Shown: positions 1 to 45,210 of the stretch, in pieces | How positions within the stretch are numbered: the first letter of the stretch is position 1 | Layout: every line of letters starts with the position of its first letter | Assembly (NCBI GenBank): GCA_035545275.1 | Contig: DASZYT010000001.1 | Span: 6,143 to 70,142 of the forward strand | Origin: Candidatus Saccharimonadales bacterium | GTDB lineage: Bacteria; Patescibacteriota; Saccharimonadia; Saccharimonadales; UBA4665 | DNA: 64,000 nucleotides | Reading direction: 5' to 3' | Notes under the pieces: generated by a model | The model's database searches: none | What the model was told of the DNA's origin: nothing | Seen by the model: the letters and a program-made list of their open reading frames with translations, nothing else | Made by a program: the position numbers and the translations under genes

Positions 1-404
1 CGTTCTGCCTCACTTTTTTTGCTGGACGCTTCGGACTGCGCCTGTTGTGCCTCTATGGATTTTTCGCGGGCTTCTTCCTTGAGTTTTTCCCGTTCCTCTT
101 CATTGTCTTCGGCTTCTTTTCTCTTTTCCTCGGCTTCGTGCTCTGCCTCTTCCGCCTCGCTCTCAGCCTCGTCAGCTTCTTCGGCTTTCTTTTCCCCCTC
201 TTTTTTCTTTTCTTCCTTTTCCTCCGCTTCTTTCTCCATCTCCTGGGCCTCTTTTTCTGCTTCCTCTGCCTTTTTCTTTTTCTCTTCGCTCTCCGATTTT
301 TTACTTTCTGCTTCCTGCTTCAGGCTCTCTGCTTCCGATTTGAGCTTTTCGGCCTCTTCCTTTTTTGACTCGGCTTCGCGCTTGAGATCATCTGGACCGG
401 GCAT
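1..404 (-). CDS. Glu/Lys/Ala-rich low-complexity (coiled-coil-like) protein, N-terminal ~134 codons; gene continues past the left edge
   Basis: The minus-strand frame is open from ATG at comp(402-404) (AAGGAA upstream) down to nt 1. It translates MPGPDDLKREAESKKEEAEKLKSEAESLKQEAESKK..., almost only E/K/A/S. The + strand S/F/L-rich ORFs 19-459 and 45-368 are its antisense mirror. Confidence 0.55.
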   Translation of the reverse strand, partial: MPGPDDLKREAESKKEEAEKLKSEAESLKQEAESKKSESEEKKKKAEEAEKEAQEMEKEAEEKEEKKKEGEKKAEEADEAESEAEEAEHEAEEKRKEAEDNEEEREKLKEEAREKSIEAQQAQSEASSKKSEAE

Positions 405-521
405 AGGGGTTCCTTTCTTTAGGATGCAGTGTATCGAAGCGGGGAACAGAGCGCAGTAACATATCCGACTGCCTTGTTGGCTAGGCGCTGATATGCTGAA
501 TGGGTTAAATGGAGTATACGT

Positions 522-836
522 ATGCCGCCAGACGAACCGACCGACGAGGAGCGTTTAGAGCAAGAGGCACAAGACTATGACACCCCGTTCCATCCGGCCG
601 ATCCCAACCCGCCCGACACAGCAGGAGATGAAAGCCGCACCGAGCGAGCCGCCGAGCCGGGCAGCACCTATCCGCAAGGCGACTCAAACGTACAAAAGGA
701 GGAATTGTATGATGCAGGCGAGGGAGCTGCCATGGGTGTACCAGAGGTGCCAAACGTCGGTAATGCAGTGACAGACTACACCCCGAACCAGAGCGATTCA
801 CCGGATGATTCAGACAATTCTAAGCAAGCTGCGTAA
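522..836 (+). CDS. acidic Pro/Asp/Glu-rich hypothetical protein, probably disordered
   Basis: ATG 522 is preceded by GGAG. The 104-aa product MPPDEPTDEERLEQEAQDYDTPFHP... has no hydrophobic core and no motif I recognise. Confidence 0.5.
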   Translation: MPPDEPTDEERLEQEAQDYDTPFHPADPNPPDTAGDESRTERAAEPGSTYPQGDSNVQKEELYDAGEGAAMGVPEVPNVGNAVTDYTPNQSDSPDDSDNSKQAA

Positions 837-3178: not shown

Positions 3179-3973
3179 TTATGTCTCTTCTCCAAGCCGA
3201 TTTTGGCTCGGGTCGAGCATGCGCGTGATGGCTGCCTGGATCTGGTCGTCGGGTGTGGCCTGGGGCGAAGGCTTTTCGCGGCGGGGCATGGGCAACCCCT
3301 TGGCTTTGCGCTCAACGAGCTGTTGGACATATTCGGCATGCTCATCGTGATAGTCATTGACATAGAAGGGGGCGCTGAACCGGTCGATAAGTCGTTGCAG
3401 AGCCTCGACTTCAGAGGGGTTCGACTTGGGCAACGGGCGCGTTTTGATGTCGCTGCGCGGCACGATCTCATCGGCAAAGCGTAGTTGGTGCAACACCAGC
3501 AGGTCGCCCGCGACGCCTAGCGCGCCGATGTGCTCTTTGCTCATGATAACGAACTGGGTGATGGCAAGCTTGTCGCTACGCACCAAGGCTTCACGCAGTA
3601 GCGCATAGGCCCGTTCGCCACCGGCGCCCGGCGTAATGTAATACGGCTTTTCGTAGTAGATAGGGTTGATGTCGCCTGGCTCGCAAAATTGCTTTACGTC
3701 GATGGTCTTGAGGTGGGGTGTGCCGGTTTGTTCCAGCTCCTGGTCGGTGAGGGTCACGAACTTGCCTGGCTCCACCTCGACGGCCCGTACGACCTCATCA
3801 GCTCTGACTTCTTCGTGCGTAACACTGCTGCGCAATACGCGGTGCACCGGTTTGCCGTCTTTCTCGGACAATTGCACAAAACGGGGCCGGGCAGAACGGC
3901 TGGCGCTATACAGGCGCACTGGCACACCTAGTTGTCCGATGGTGATGAATCCTTGCCAGCTTGCACGTGCCAT
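3179..3973 (-). CDS. ku: Ku protein (non-homologous end joining DNA-end-binding protein)
   Basis: 264 aa from ATG comp(3971-3973) with a GGGGGAG RBS. MARASWQGFITIGQLGVPVRLYSA...INPIYYEKPYYITPG...LLVLHQLRFADE is a typical bacterial Ku core, followed by a basic/Pro-rich tail. The upstream extension to 4057 is not needed. Confidence 0.85.
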   Translation of the reverse strand: MARASWQGFITIGQLGVPVRLYSASRSARPRFVQLSEKDGKPVHRVLRSSVTHEEVRADEVVRAVEVEPGKFVTLTDQELEQTGTPHLKTIDVKQFCEPGDINPIYYEKPYYITPGAGGERAYALLREALVRSDKLAITQFVIMSKEHIGALGVAGDLLVLHQLRFADEIVPRSDIKTRPLPKSNPSEVEALQRLIDRFSAPFYVNDYHDEHAEYVQQLVERKAKGLPMPRREKPSPQATPDDQIQAAITRMLDPSQNRLGEET

Positions 3974-4219
3974 TGCTCCCCCTTTACTCCAGCGTAAGGC
4001 AACGTACTTTGGTGGGCAGTGAGCAATTTCACCAATAAAGTGCTGGTGTATTGCCATAAATGTGATATAGTACGGCTACTAGAAGTAAGCTGCTAGTTGT
4101 TCCAACCTAAACGGAATCGTTCTAGACAATTTAAGTAAATGTAAGTGTTCGCGTGAGGAGCAGCTAACTGGATCAGACGAATAGGAAGGCCAGATTACCT
4201 CGGAACATGAGAGGAAAAA

Positions 4220-4905: not shown

Positions 4906-5625
4906 CTAACTCTCTAGGCTGGCGAATACAACGGTGCGGTTTTTAAACACGCTTTTGCCGCCCACGACGTCCCAAGTGCAGGTCATCAGGTTCAAGCCGG
5001 GTTTTCCAGGGTTGATCGGCGACAATACGGCATTCATGTCAACGTTGTCTGCCGGATAGGTTTTTTGTGAAACAACGGCGTAGACGTAAGCCTTACTGTC
5101 GCCGCGGATGATAGTAATTTTGTCACCTGGCCGTAATGTGTGCAGACTATAGAATATACCGCCGGTACCCCAGCCGGCGACATGCCCGTCTATAAACATC
5201 GCTCCTGGCTGCCCTGGCTTGGCGCTTTTGTCGTACCATCCGGTGTCGTAGCTTGACCCCGGCGTAGCTATATGGCCGTCACTTAGTACACCAAGCGCCA
5301 GAACACGTACCTTTTCGATGCCCAACTTGGGGATACTGATATATCTCGGCAACGTCGGGGCGACACGATAGCTCTCGACTTGCTGCCTAGACGGTTTTGC
5401 GATAGGGGCGGGTGCCTGCACTTCGCCTGGGCTCAGCACCTGCACGATTGGAGGCGGTGTTGCGTTGGACTCATGGCGCCATAATGCAATCGCCTCAGCG
5501 CCCATGACTAGCCCGGCAAGTATGAGCATACATGCGATCACTCTAGCGCTAGATGCGTGGCTTTTCCTGCTCACATACAACCGCGGCATAGGGCTTACTG
5601 ATGCTTGTGTTTGCGGTTTTGCCAA
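4906..5625 (-). CDS. sortase-family transpeptidase (class E/F-like), membrane anchored
   Basis: N-terminal TM helix, His in FIDGHVAG, and a catalytic Cys in LNLMTCT (TLxTC-type). The start is ambiguous: 5625 overlaps the upstream gene by 31 nt, and ATG at comp(5587-5589) is the alternative. Confidence 0.7.
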   Translation of the reverse strand: MAKPQTQASVSPMPRLYVSRKSHASSARVIACMLILAGLVMGAEAIALWRHESNATPPPIVQVLSPGEVQAPAPIAKPSRQQVESYRVAPTLPRYISIPKLGIEKVRVLALGVLSDGHIATPGSSYDTGWYDKSAKPGQPGAMFIDGHVAGWGTGGIFYSLHTLRPGDKITIIRGDSKAYVYAVVSQKTYPADNVDMNAVLSPINPGKPGLNLMTCTWDVVGGKSVFKNRTVVFASLES

Positions 5626-7292
5626 AGCACAGTCAGGCCGGCTCCAATCGCTCCAAGGGCCCCTATACCTAGAGCCTCGACGATTGGGTTAGGAAAGTTG
5701 CGTGCTACATAGCTGGTATCGGGGGCGGCCGGAGCCGACACAACCGTTAGGACAACGTCATTGCCAGTACTTCCCTTGTAGGAGATCTTAAACGTGTCGG
5801 CGCCGACTTTGAAGGTCGCGCCTTCTGCCAGACCGGTGAACGTACCAGTTACGGCGTCAGAGCCGTCGTTTTGGATAATCGTGTAGCTTTCTCCGGTCTT
5901 GGGAGCGTAATTGTTGTAGAGGCTGACGTTTAGGGCGCCTGAAATGCTCACGGTACCGGTAACATTTATCTGGTCATAGCCGCTACAGGCTGTCGTACCG
6001 CCAATCTGGAATGCGTATGATCCATTGAGTGTCAGGTTGCCAGAGGCCAAGCATCCCGGGCTGTGTCCGGGCGCTACGGTACCACCGCTGTTAACGGTCA
6101 GGGCGCCGACTGAACCGGAACCTTCTAGGGTACCCCCGCTGGCAACCGTTGTGTCTCCCTGTACGCCGTCAACCGAAACTGCATATGCGCTACCGATGTA
6201 TAGGTTTACGTCGGGATGGTTACCGGTCAATGTCTTGCTGACCACTGCCGGATTGTACGTGCCGTTGCTCATGCTTGATGTATTGTTACTGCTATCGACG
6301 ACCAGTTTGCCGCCATATGTGACTCCGGGCAGCGTGAATTTGTGCCCGCCGCTAAACGGTCCGGTCAGCGTGGTTGTCGTAGCTTTGCCGCCAAACGTAA
6401 CGTCGGTTGACAGTGTTATGTGCCCAGTCAGTGTAAAGGCTTGGTCGGAAGTAGCCGCACTATATATGACCCCATTGAACATGCCGCCGAAGCACACCGA
6501 TCCGACCCCAAGCTTCGCGGTTGGTTCGAGGCCAGAAGGGTAAGAGCTGGCTCCGCTCAGAGTAATGTCGTTCGAGAACGTCGCAGCTCCTAGTGCACAT
6601 CCGCCCACGCCAAGGCTCGCACCGTCGCCGACAGTCAATGACGCCGTACCGACTGAGCTGGAAGTAGCTGCGCTCAACACTCCCGAGGTCGCGTCGATCG
6701 TGCCGCTAAAGGTACTGCCCGTCCCCGAGAAACTGACACTTCCCCCGTAGAGGGTGTCGTCACCGGTGGTTGTGATGTTACCACTGCCGGCGATAGCTCC
6801 CGTAAACATCAGGCCGCCATGTCCCGCCGCCAGTGTGGGGTTGCCTGCAAACGTCAGGCTGTTATCAAATCGCAGTGGGTTGGTTAGCGTGGAGTCTGTG
6901 CTGGTGGTGGTGTTAGAAATATTCCCCGTAATGGTCAGTGCATCCCCGCCAATATTCAGCCCGAAAAAGTCGCCGGTACTGCCACCATTTGGCCACGTGT
7001 TTGCGCCGCTAAATGTAATATTGTTGACGCTCAGGCCGCTCAGGTCGTTATTCAGGGTCGCGTAATCCGTTCCTAGGGCAGATATCGGGAAGACCAGACT
7101 GTCTCCGTTTTGCGGTACGGTGCTGCCGCAACTACTCCAGTTGGCAGAGTCACTAAAGGTCGCCCCGTCCCCACCCCCGGTCCAGGTACAGTTATTCCCG
7201 GCGGCGAAAGCCGTCCCGAGGTTGACAAACATCAGCGAATACACGCCCACGACCAGCGAGGTGCTGATGTGGAGCAATCTCCGAATTTTCAT
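5595..7292 (-). CDS. large secreted Gly/Thr/Ser-rich beta-helix surface protein with PATR-like (autotransporter-associated beta-strand) repeats and a C-terminal anchor
   Basis: Signal peptide MKIRRLLHISTSLVVGVYSLMFVNLGTAFA. The C-terminal module ..GGTLEGSGSVGALTVNSGGTVAPGHSPG..YDQINVTGTVSISGALNVSL..G.FTG.. is PATR-like. It ends in a hydrophobic helix plus QNRKHKHQ. Confidence 0.7.
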   Translation of the reverse strand: MKIRRLLHISTSLVVGVYSLMFVNLGTAFAAGNNCTWTGGGDGATFSDSANWSSCGSTVPQNGDSLVFPISALGTDYATLNNDLSGLSVNNITFSGANTWPNGGSTGDFFGLNIGGDALTITGNISNTTTSTDSTLTNPLRFDNSLTFAGNPTLAAGHGGLMFTGAIAGSGNITTTGDDTLYGGSVSFSGTGSTFSGTIDATSGVLSAATSSSVGTASLTVGDGASLGVGGCALGAATFSNDITLSGASSYPSGLEPTAKLGVGSVCFGGMFNGVIYSAATSDQAFTLTGHITLSTDVTFGGKATTTTLTGPFSGGHKFTLPGVTYGGKLVVDSSNNTSSMSNGTYNPAVVSKTLTGNHPDVNLYIGSAYAVSVDGVQGDTTVASGGTLEGSGSVGALTVNSGGTVAPGHSPGCLASGNLTLNGSYAFQIGGTTACSGYDQINVTGTVSISGALNVSLYNNYAPKTGESYTIIQNDGSDAVTGTFTGLAEGATFKVGADTFKISYKGSTGNDVVLTVVSAPAAPDTSYVARNFPNPIVEALGIGALGAIGAGLTVLWQNRKHKHQ

Positions 7293-7446: not shown

Positions 7447-7530
7447 TGGAGGGCCAGGAGGACAATCGCACGGCTGCAGCCGTACTCGGAACAAATTCCT
7501 GCGCGTGGCTTTGCCGACCGAACCCTCGAC
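7447..7530 (-). pseudogene. partial copy of the 3' third of tRNA-Lys with a 56-nt insert in the T-loop
   Basis: On the minus strand: GTCGAGGGTTCG (7530-7519, identical to the tRNA), then a 56-nt insert (7518-7463), then TCCTCCTGGCCCTCCA (7462-7447). The last segment is the tRNA 3' end including CCA, 15/15 identical, with one T-stem nt missing. There is no 5' acceptor strand. Confidence 0.4.
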
Positions 7531-7586
7531 CACGAGCTTTTGCATGCGCAAAACCTCTGTCTCGGGTTCAAGCCCAGCCAACCACG

Positions 7587-7613
7587 AAAAAAGCCGAGTC
7601 ATAAAGACTCGAC
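7587..7613 (-). terminator. rho-independent terminator directly after tRNA-Lys
   Basis: On the minus strand: GTCGAGTC-TTTAT-GACTCGGC followed by TTTTTT, starting 9 nt after the tRNA CCA. Confidence 0.6.
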
Positions 7614-7621
7614 TTCTTTCG

Positions 7622-23324: not shown

Positions 23325-23399
23325 GGCCCCGTCGTCCAGCGGTCAAGACACCGGGTTTTCATCCCGGCAACCGGAGTTCGACTCTCCGCGGGGTCACCA
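23325..23399 (+). tRNA. tRNA-Glu (anticodon TTC), CCA encoded
   Basis: Hand-folded 75 nt: GGCCCCG TC GTCC AGCGGTCA AGAC A CCGGG TTTTCAT CCCGG CAAC CGGAG TTCGACT CTCCG CGGGGTC A CCA. Confidence 0.95.
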
Positions 23400-23400
23400 A

Positions 23401-23435
23401 AGAAAGAGTCCGAGCAAAGCTCGGGCTTTTTCTTT
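23401..23435 (+). terminator. rho-independent terminator directly after tRNA-Glu
   Basis: GTCCGAGC-AAA-GCTCGGGC followed by TTTTTCTTT, with an A-rich 5' flank. Confidence 0.65.
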
Positions 23436-23487
23436 GGTCATCCGGAATGCTTGGCTTCGGATGCCGGTGGCGGCAAAGCCGACACGA

Positions 23488-23576
23488 GGCAACCGAGTTC
23501 GATAACTAGGAACGCGCGCAGGAATTTATTCCGAGCACGTGACGACGGTATACAACGTACTCTCGCGGGGTCACCA
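23488..23576 (+). pseudogene. partial copy of the 3' third of tRNA-Glu with a 56-nt insert in the T-loop
   Basis: GGCAACCGAGTTCGA (23488-23502; tRNA has GGCAACCGGAGTTCGA), 56-nt insert (23503-23558), then ACTCTCGCGGGGTCACCA (23559-23576; tRNA has ACTCTCCGCGGGGTCACCA). Each T-stem strand has lost one nt, so 4 bp still pair. Confidence 0.4.
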
Positions 23577-23578
23577 GT

Positions 23579-23610
23579 AAAAAAGGATCACCATCGGTGG
23601 TCCTTTTTTA
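23579..23610 (+). terminator. terminator after the tRNA-Glu partial copy (A-run before, T-run after)
   Basis: AAAAAAGGATCACC-ATC-GGTGGTCCTTTTTT. Confidence 0.6.
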
Positions 23611-23752
23611 CTGCTCGCAGAGAACTGAACTCCGGAGGAGTTCGTTCACAAAGGCCACGCGCAGCTGCTTGCAGCCAGCCGGCTTATCTGGCTACCCTCA
23701 GCGGGGATACAGAGAGTAGAAAATTGATTTTTAGACGCTTTATATTACTATT

Positions 23753-33914: not shown

Positions 33915-34314
33915 GGGGCTGAATTTTAAGCTCGACGTTGTACATTATCGGTTAGATCAGCAGGTCGCTTACTCAGCGTCATAGGGTAAACTCAATAACT
34001 GCAAAAGTTACTGATCGTGCAGCCACAGTTGCCTCGCTCGTTAAGAGCTGGGGCGCCAACTGGGCTCCACAAACTGTTCTGGCTTAAATAACCAGATCAA
34101 CGCTCAGAGTGACACCTGATAGTTCGAAAGCGTTTCATATCATCAGGTTGCCCAAGTACCGCTATCCGTAGTGCTTGTTAAGACCAGGATTGCTGCATAG
34201 GAATGTTTGTCCGCTTCGATACCCTGTGCCTAAGATTTTAAAACGGACTATACCTGTAGACGACTAACCAAGATAATACGACGGACGTGGGGGCAGTACC
34301 CACCAGCTCCACCA
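33915..34314 (+). ncRNA. ssrA: tmRNA (transfer-messenger RNA)
   Basis: The 5' GGGGCTGAATTTTAAGCTCGACG and 3' GGACGTGGGGGCAGTACCCACCAGCTCCACCA form the tRNA-Ala-like acceptor stem with G3:U70 and a T-arm. 400 nt in an ORF-free gap. An internal frame ends ..TVLA-TAA. Confidence 0.85.
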
Positions 34315-45133: not shown

Positions 45134-45210
45134 GGGCAATTAGCTCAGTTGGCTAGAGCGCAGCATTCACATTGCTGAGGTCACAGGTTCAAGCCCTGTA
45201 TTGCCCACCA
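45134..45210 (+). tRNA. tRNA-Val (anticodon CAC), CCA encoded
   Basis: Hand-folded 77 nt: GGGCAAT TA GCTC AGTTGGCTA GAGC G CAGCA TTCACAT TGCTG AGGTC ACAGG TTCAAGC CCTGT ATTGCCC A CCA. Confidence 0.95.

Follow-up and report, generated by a model that had tools for sequence, protein, structure and literature searches.

Non-coding modules with a conserved hairpin and an interrupted copy of the tRNA 3' end downstream of tRNA genes in Saccharibacteria

Folded single strands of DNA serve as recombination sites in two well-known systems, viz. the attC sites of integrons, which are found in cassette arrays, and the attP(+) hairpin of the CTX phage, which is used by XerCD. Small palindromic repeats form another group of elements, which includes the MITEs (miniature transposable elements with inverted repeats), the repetitive extragenic palindromes and their paired forms (REP/REPIN) with the RAYT transposases, and the Rickettsia palindromic elements that occur in RNA and protein genes. 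For the integration sites within tRNA genes, Williams is said to have distinguished, in 2002, a class in which the T-loop is the sublocation. The tDNA islands of the Islander type are genomic islands with a tyrosine integrase that are located at tRNA genes (PMC4383910), and introns at non-canonical positions, including the T-arm, have been described for archaeal tRNAs (PMC3241643, PMC9602550). The present work concerns a stretch of 64,000 nucleotides (nt) from a Candidatus Saccharimonadales bacterium (assembly GCA_035545275.1, contig DASZYT010000001.1, positions 6,143 to 70,142; hereafter referred to as the window), in which the gene for tRNA-Lys is followed by a short terminated module that ends in a copy of the 3' end of the same tRNA, split within its T-loop by an insert.

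The Lys module is one member of an undescribed family of non-coding modules from one clade of Saccharibacteria. In its layout, a direct copy of the tRNA segment that reaches from the variable loop into the T-loop (termed a) is separated from a copy of the tRNA 3' end (termed b) by an insert that bears a conserved hairpin (termed H1). The original prediction, which was made for the Lys module and one Glu module of the window, held that interruption of different tRNAs at the same T-loop position by homologous inserts is unlikely to be random decay, and this is upheld by the presence of the same architecture in more than 100 non-redundant loci representing 31 anticodon types. Our preferred interpretation, which is a tentative one and for which we would claim not quite an even chance, is that these modules are the junctions of a miniature DNA insertion/recombination system acting at tRNA 3' ends, for which H1 would serve as the conserved cis site and which would occasionally carry a single gene as cargo. 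Searches of the literature by sequence and by topic returned nothing on the H1 element.

Structure of the tRNA-Lys module and distribution of the family

The Lys locus is on the minus strand of the window. The gene for tRNA-Lys(CTT) (7698-7622), which was called by both ARAGORN and the Rfam tRNA model (74.4 bits), is intact and its CCA is encoded. It is followed by a terminator, T1 (7621-7582), consisting of a long hairpin and a T-run; its entire stretch is paired in the minimum free energy fold, the terminator scan reports its hairpin on the plus strand only, and an extension of the stem pairs the CCA of the tRNA (7624-7622) with TGG (7584-7582). The module proper contains an inverted copy (a', 7572-7559, CTTGAACCCGAGAC) of the variable loop, the 5' T-stem strand and TTCG, which pairs with a, then the central hairpin of the a'/a arm (7558-7531, GGTTTTGCgcatGCAAAAGC), which is of an 'ATTTTGC-loop-GCAAAAT' type that is mostly seen in Lys and Arg modules, and then a itself (7530-7519, GTCGAGGGTTCG), a direct copy of tRNA nt 44-57 that was delimited by sequence comparison and junction mapping and is identical to the tRNA at 12/12 positions. 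The insert of 56 nt (7518-7463), which belongs to a short class, is one extended hairpin (CGGC/GCCG, AGCC/GGCT) bearing H1, the core of which (7503-7485, CGCAGGAATTTGTTCCGAG) is made up of C-G, G.A, C-G, a bulged A, a 4-bp stem and a tetraloop. It is followed by b (7462-7447, TCCTCCTGGCCCTCCA), which contains the 3' T-stem strand, the 3' acceptor strand, the discriminator and CCA of the tRNA and is identical to it at 15/16 positions (C61 to T). Directly 3' of the copied CCA there is a second terminator, T2 (about 7446-7409), for which the terminator scan indicates a stem at 7436-7419 and a T-run.

All seven pieces that had originally been listed for this locus, including the 12/12 match and the length of the insert, were found where they had been placed, and an equivalent 56-nt insert is present in the Glu module (23503-23558). 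The conserved box of 25 nt within these inserts occurs at exactly two sites in the window, 7481-7505 (minus) and 23515-23539 (plus), and in 100 shuffles of the window no match to it is expected even when three mismatches are allowed. Some details had to be revised. The T-stem nucleotide that was thought to be missing from b is a substitution, as the copy reads TCCTC where the tRNA has CCCTC and the change of C61 to T leaves a G-T wobble with G53; what is missing from the Lys copy are nt 58-60 of the T-loop. The mini-hairpin GGCAAAGCC and the palindrome ACGGCTGCAGCCGT, which had been described as separate features, are more plausibly the two sides of a single long hairpin that encloses the box, and its CGGC/GCCG and AGCC/GGCT stems covary in relatives. 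Further, the supposed spacer of about 55 nt is occupied by a' and the central hairpin, and this inverted copy of a tRNA segment, as well as a second Glu module, had been overlooked. The statement that the module has no canonical 5' acceptor strand, and hence is not a tRNA, was found to be correct; only a weak complement to the 3' end is present, right after T1. Consistently, ARAGORN and Rfam call only the upstream tRNAs, and the modules are devoid of a D arm and an anticodon arm.

Relatives of these modules were identified by an exact-word scan for the box word CGCAGGAATTTNTTCCGAG in one genome per species and by a second scan of metagenomes. The species-representative genomes yielded 92 loci, with up to seven in a single genome (UBA5145). 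Roughly 65-70 of them are from metagenome-assembled genomes of Saccharibacteria/Saccharimonadales, including a few that are differently labelled, and the remaining matches are accidental, a TTTC or TTTT variant of the word being present within genes from other phyla. The metagenomes contributed 90 further loci. About 155 loci besides those of the window were obtained in this way, and nearly all of them come from metagenome-assembled genomes of Saccharibacteria or from metagenome contigs.

A called tRNA is adjoined by 106 non-redundant modules, each of which lies downstream and shares the strand of its tRNA. The distance from the end of the tRNA to the box has a median of 109 nt and a range of 23-126 nt, which leaves no room for an integrase gene between them. 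An exact repeat of the last 16 nt of the tRNA was found in 48/106 modules, and a repeat with at most one mismatch in 57/106, and the 3' ends of non-cognate tRNAs, which served as controls, always showed at least three mismatches. The upstream piece, comprising the variable loop and the 5' T-stem strand, is cognate in a smaller share of modules than b and has undergone more drift. By junction mapping, the insert is located between nt 57 and 58 of the T-loop, and the downstream copy, which is 18-19 nt long, runs from nt 58/59 to the CCA. An H1-like hairpin motif was present within 160 nt downstream in 119/200 unique tRNA loci, a proportion that is biased because these loci were fetched by means of the box.

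Covariation of the hairpins and the ends of the modules

When followed from the outside in, H1 starts with P1, a stem that varies, and continues with a conserved mismatch, a single base pair, then C-G, G.A and C-G, a bulged A, a stem of 4 bp and a tetraloop. The conserved mismatch is C.A in 105 of the 128 distinct contexts, and the A on its 3' side (position +2) is found in 125/128 of them. The nucleotides that are invariant, CGCA...GAG.A, are in internal-loop positions. For matches that were picked solely by the exact box, 2.88 of the three inner flanking pairs are formed, in comparison to 2.03 with shuffled partners (maximum 2.16 in 500 shuffles). In an alignment of 105 distinct sequences, 98.3% of the cells are paired (82.4% when shuffled), seven of the nine H1 pairs change on both sides, and sliding of the partners lowers the pairing to 15-51%; as this alignment was pre-filtered for pairing, the unbiased figure is that of 2.88 versus 2.03. 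The apical hairpin can be exchanged while CGCA...GAG.A stays in place, with GGAATTTATTCC, GGAGCTTGCTCC, GATGCTTGCATC, GAAGCTTGCTTC and GCTGCTTGCAGC as variants, and two near-identical modules (loci L040 and L169) differ mainly in the apical hairpin of H1.

The conserved hairpin element as a whole is 55-80 nt long and comprises H1, often followed by a second hairpin, H2. Three classes of inserts could be distinguished, viz. a short class (the Lys module of the window), a long class with a covarying H2, and a class of the GATAAT...ATTAT form (the Glu module of the window). When the insert is considered as a MITE or as a palindromic element of the IS200-IS605 type, its left flank is always ...GTTCG, and ...GCT or ...AT is frequent at the right end; a consistent duplication of the target was not observed, nor was a transposase.

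In nearly every module, a strand complementary to the copied TTCG region is present upstream, where GAACC... pairs with ...GGTTC. A local alignment of a' and a for 38 modules contained 344 Watson-Crick pairs, 10 G-T, 6 A-C and 35 other appositions. Since the direct copy drifts away from the tRNA and its pairing with a' is nevertheless kept, the hairpin itself seems to be maintained. The loop ends of the arm fall into a few families (CAGCTTGCTG, GAGCGAAGCGAAC, ATTTTGCaaaGCAAAAT), whose occurrence in different species broadly follows the identity of the tRNA. A weak complement to the 3' tail of the module starts right after T1 (4.49 mismatches per 12 versus 5.07 in the control), so that the tRNA 3' end, T1 and the start of the module constitute one long imperfect palindrome, and many of the minimum-energy folds pair the two ends of the module. 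A hidden 5' acceptor strand was considered for this region and rejected, as the complement is weak and its alignments contain many mismatches.

Most tRNAs in the relatives are followed by a terminator in the style of T1. The idea that T1 is part of the repeat was also abandoned, on account of the diversity of the terminator stems. One terminator stem (GCCTCAGC-loop-GCTGGGGC) recurs, as the first terminator after different tRNAs or tRNA fragments, in different genomes (L003, L037, L122, L053, L154 and L178); this is unusual for intrinsic terminators and suggests that pieces consisting of a 3' end and its terminator may travel together.

Tandem modules, cargo genes and other sites of H1

The second tRNA of the window that has a module is tRNA-Glu(TTC) (23325-23399, plus strand), which is intact according to ARAGORN and Rfam. 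Its T1 (23400-23437), for which homologous terminators are found at the equal position in L053 and L005, is followed by the 5' arm of the module (23439-23502), with a' at about 23450-23467, the central hairpin GGTGGCGGCaaaGCCGaCAC, and a (GGCAACCGAGTTCGA) at 23489-23502. The insert is of the GATAAC...GTATAC subtype with its H1 core at 23517-23535, and b (23559-23576, ACTCTCGCGGGGTCACCA), a copy of the tRNA-Glu 3' end, has lost one T-stem base pair on both strands. Its T2 (23577-23613), recognized from the sequence, is directly followed by an older, degenerate module (about 23614-23711, plus strand), in which the arm reads GAACTCC-GGAG-GAGTTCG, the core is a variant one, CGCAGCTGCTTGCAGCCAG (23660-23678), and the copied 3' end of tRNA-Glu is decayed, CTCAGCGGGGATACA. 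The arm of this degenerate module matches that of the single module in L053 and L005.

Tandem modules are also present in L012, L024, L038, L040, L044, L073, L141/L164 and L178. In most arrays the 3' end is better preserved in the copy that is proximal to the tRNA, and the distal copies are decayed. In some loci a gene is located between the copies. In L086 a Fic gene lies between direct repeats of about 85 nt that consist of the insert and part of b, in L138 an open reading frame (ORF) of 221 aa is flanked by two Met modules, and in L040 a FolC-like gene (named from its sequence alone) is found among four copies of GTCCTCTATCCCCGACCA; L084 has near-identical terminators on both sides. A Pfam scan of six cargo ORFs identified Fic, NUDIX, two hydrolases and YbjQ, with one ORF having no match.

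H1 is not confined to T-loops. Two anticodon loops harbour it, one in a 5' tRNA-Met fragment that is located upstream of the complete gene (L070) and the other in a 3' fragment that has an unrelated insert in its T-loop (L149). At two smpB loci (minus strand) it is located past the stop codon, by a few nt in L031 (box 415-433) and by about 25 nt in L080 (box 1110-1128), and it is followed there by a second in-frame copy of the C-terminal tail of SmpB (YKRQTLKAREESRTINRALKQSR* in L031). The differences between the second tail and the first are mostly at synonymous sites, and those between the two species in both copies of the tail are likewise largely synonymous. Orphan copies of H1 are found between genes in L108/L145, and another intergenic copy in L123. 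In L136, which is on a Saccharibacteria-like contig, the tRNA gene contains a group I intron (342-567, minus strand; Rfam, 107.6 bits), and the module after it is non-cognate, with the 3' end GTCCTGCCCCCGCTACCA and two halves that fit each other. Lastly, the private P1 variant AAAAAG/CTTTT is common to modules of different tRNAs in one lineage (L059, L077 and two in L085), which points to spread or conversion within a genome.

Ordinary small-cargo islands at these tRNAs join, wherever a junction was readable, the acceptor strand without H1 and push T1 and the module downstream (L053, 2440-4060; L154, 5450-5990; L109, 970-1320, minus strand; L120, 150-790; also L005). In L053, L154, L109 and L120 the cargo is one or two genes (alpha/beta hydrolases, YbjQ-like, a small membrane ORF, NUDIX), a ...CCA fragment of 8-10 nt is left before the old terminator, and there is no integrase inside. 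Unrelated T-loop inserts of 8 to about 110 nt were observed in similar duplicates in L063 (minus strand), L178 (540-660), L040 (minus strand, 1960-2100) and L133, and the one in L178 is accompanied by an inverted copy of the tRNA T-arm region that is perfect at 21/21 positions.

The other RNA genes of the window are without modules. No module is present at tRNA-Val (45134-45210), and the gene for the transfer-messenger RNA (tmRNA; 33915-34314, plus strand; Rfam, 69 bits), which is 400 nt long and has an unusual T-loop, GGGGCAGTACCC, has its own terminator and no module. The genes downstream of the Lys module, all on the minus strand, encode a Ku-domain protein (3179-4057), a sortase (4906-5625) and a surface-protein-like product of 565 aa (5595-7292), the homologues of which are annotated as autotransporter-associated beta-strand repeat proteins. 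Its closest homologues are only 69% and 47% identical, indicating that the source genome is without a close sequenced relative, and they do not keep a tRNA beside the gene when orthologous tRNA-Lys loci are sought by way of this neighbour.

Comparison with described systems and interpretation

The modules have features in common with each of the systems mentioned at the outset. As in tDNA islands, an intact tRNA is followed by a displaced direct 3' fragment from the T-loop to the CCA, in keeping with an insertion that supplies a replacement 3' end, and there is tandem accumulation, cargo genes, and an equal logic at the 3' end of a protein gene, smpB. The displaced direct 3' fragment bounding an insert, by which such islands are recognized, is thus present, but the integrase gene is not. 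Unlike these islands, most modules are only about 130-150 nt long and contain neither a gene nor an integrase, the fragment abuts a covarying hairpin rather than double-stranded arm-type binding sites, and there is an extra inverted and direct copy of the left half of the target inside the module. The resemblance to attC and attP(+) is in a structure that is conserved above the sequence, in the size of the unit (60-140 nt), in arrays of empty and single-gene cassettes (Fic, NUDIX-like), and in a hairpin that, as predicted here from the sequence, re-creates a double-stranded copy of the target half-site. However, IntI/attI and the R/L core boxes of integrons are absent, GTTRRRY is only loosely resembled by GTTCGGY, the junction is 55-80 nt 3' of the GTTCG motif, and each module is specific to one tRNA. 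An integron attC/cassette array was therefore rejected, despite the hairpin and the cassette-like arrays, as the junction is misplaced and no recombinase gene was present among the neighbours examined.

Like the MITE, REP and Rickettsia repeats, the modules are short non-coding hairpins that are multicopy within a genome, are located downstream of genes and are tolerated in sequence resembling RNA genes. They differ from MITE/REP in that neither terminal inverted repeats nor a target-site duplication could be delimited, in their low copy number, and in being tied almost exclusively to tRNA 3' copies, and no RAYT or TnpA gene was seen nearby. With archaeal tRNA introns they share a short structured insert in the T-loop or anticodon loop of a tRNA-like sequence, at several positions. 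However, the interrupted copy is a fragment and the functional tRNA is whole, the hosts are bacteria, there is no evident bulge-helix-bulge, and splicing is unneeded. The tRNA-like non-coding RNAs (the tRNA-like domain of tmRNA, YrlA and mascRNA) similarly combine a T-arm-like element with a 3' acceptor strand and CCA, but the modules have no Rfam match, no 5' acceptor strand, an interrupted T-loop and one module per tRNA identity.

Searches against Rfam, at the gathering threshold for the window and at permissive expected values of up to 1-10 for the Lys region and eight loci, gave no match to a module. The matches returned were tRNAs, tmRNA and hits at chance level; those to YrlA and mascRNA (E = 10 and 2.8) fall on T1 or tRNA-Lys and not on the module. 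A described RNA family can thus be set aside at the level of the covariance models of Rfam 15, and so can a group I intron, as Intron_gpI matched none of the modules and its detection of the intron in L136 confirms that the test works. Inspection of the invariant nucleotides of H1 also indicated a misfit to the consensus motifs of the K-turn, loop E and small ribozymes. A guide similar to the omega-RNA of TnpB, with a scaffold and the 19-nt flank as guide, has an attractive geometry, but a conserved part of 56-80 nt does not suffice in length, a nuclease gene is absent and what remains of the would-be scaffold is tRNA-specific. Targeting of GTTC/CTTG in the manner of IS91 was dismissed because the junctions do not directly follow GTTC, and an origin from a phage or plasmid was rejected as well, the matches in viral contigs being chance occurrences inside genes.

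The observations that a DNA insertion system fits best are the arrays with decayed distal copies, the cargo, the sites in anticodon loops and at smpB, and the non-cognate module. In the mechanism that we propose, H1 would be the cis-acting site of a small mobile element, and an enzyme supplied in trans would recognize it as a folded single strand. Repeated insertions, sometimes with one cargo gene, would then accumulate behind the tRNA, and those that are older and more distant from it would decay; the tRNA gene itself stays intact, since it has a complete 3' end, followed by a terminator of its own, upstream of the module. Of the three readings offered in the original prediction, the T-loop-targeting element and the att-type scar fit best when taken together, whereas a small RNA is less favoured in view of the promoterless position of the window copies after T1. 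The simple scar of an attL/attR deletion that had also been envisaged is not supported, however, as the hairpin of the insert covaries and has kept invariant nucleotides in its loops, and neither a prophage nor an integrase was found at any locus. A more elaborate version, which we hold to be rather improbable, is that the module is the active part of a self-programmed site-specific insertion system of a new class, specialized for tRNA T-loops, or alternatively a per-tRNA family of RNAs that mimic the top half of the tRNA. If self-programmed, the sequence of the a'/a hairpin and of the 3' tail would determine which tRNA is targeted, and H1 would recruit an enzyme that acts on folded single-stranded DNA, or would function as a guide RNA.

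A number of observations weigh against an insertion system. No integrase, transposase or other recombinase was seen beside any of roughly 180 loci, and when viral contigs were scanned three times for the box and its variants, there were no matches at first and then four, all chance matches in coding sequence. Different species have kept modules at the same tRNA, and the T1 or central hairpins of these are related, which looks like long residence rather than recent movement. In near-identical pairs of contigs both members are occupied and are collinear through the module, with no difference between a filled and an empty site. Comparison of the window with L053 and L005 revealed only layered differences, in which the newer unit is after T1 and not inside the tRNA, so that the boundaries of insertion are provisional. 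The stems of T1 are diverse, and no repeat is conserved among them. In the stems of H1, G-T appositions exceed A-C (28 versus 13) on the tRNA-sense strand, as is expected if this strand folds, possibly as RNA. Lastly, two contigs are 100% identical over about 110 nt at an orphan H1 that is located between co-directional genes, and 87.6% identical in the flanks, and this suggests a function at the level of the host.

The last two of these points are equally part of the case for a structured non-coding RNA, which would arise by read-through from the tRNA or by processing of a longer transcript, with the cognate tRNA end as its 3' tail and with H1/H2 binding a protein. Acting as RNA, it could for example stand in for the acceptor/T-arm half of the tRNA, as a mimic or decoy, towards an enzyme or toxin that has tRNA 3' ends as its target, or it could be an element for processing or stability. 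This alternative, although unlikely in our assessment, has several observations in its favour, as the flanks of H1 pair far above the shuffles and change on both sides in the 105-sequence alignment, H2 covaries too, the invariant CGCA/GAG.A nucleotides are in internal loops, the apical tetraloops UUUA and CUUG are of RNA type, b is identical to the tRNA more often than a, and every module ends like a tRNA gene, in NCCA directly followed by a terminator; the unchanged orphan copy, with flanks that are 12% diverged, would also be accounted for. However, no sigma-70-like promoter was found between T1 and the module at the window copies, which, in view of the strength of T1, argues against an independent RNA gene. 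Other facts that weigh against an RNA function are the decay of distal copies in arrays and the loss of b in nearly half of the modules, the cargo genes and long direct repeats between copies, the existence of a non-cognate module (L136), the failure of Rfam to match a family even at E = 1 to 10, and the fact that pairing between the T-stem strands of a and b is not kept once a drifts. A two-step origin, in which integrase islands left attR remnants and a small palindrome of the MITE/REP type, preferring hairpin loops, was later inserted into these expendable copies, the layout being without a function of its own, appears less probable still. It gains from the use of these same tRNAs by classical islands (L053, L005, L154, L109 and L120) that leave an 8-10-nt acceptor fragment and a junction without H1, from the occurrence of H1 away from tRNAs, from the unrelated inserts in the same T-loops, and from the fragment in L149 with two different inserts; but it leaves unexplained the pairing of a' with a in nearly every module, the constant start of the partial copy in the variable loop, the start of the module right after T1 without island DNA, and the few families of central hairpins with their rough correspondence to the identity of the tRNA. 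An accidental resemblance, or the random decay of a duplicated tRNA, has nothing to recommend it other than the small size of the pieces and is exceedingly improbable, as no matches to the box are expected in shuffles of the window and the layout recurs with covariation in more than 100 independent loci. The insertion system, the structured RNA and the two-step origin do not entirely rule each other out.

Whichever of them is correct, H1 provides a clean conserved motif that can be modelled and searched. The tRNA-fragment finders that are used for the mapping of islands would miss or misread the split fragments described here. If the modules are RNAs, they would represent a per-tRNA family of tRNA-end mimics, for which there is no bacterial precedent. 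The genomes of Saccharibacteria are very small, yet many of the tRNA loci that were fetched carry a module. If the modules are what is left of a miniature insertion system, or are its landing pads, they would show how these symbionts can acquire accessory genes one at a time, such as those for Fic and NUDIX proteins, without phages or plasmids, and would point to an enzyme that reads a conserved hairpin beside the tRNA T-loop.

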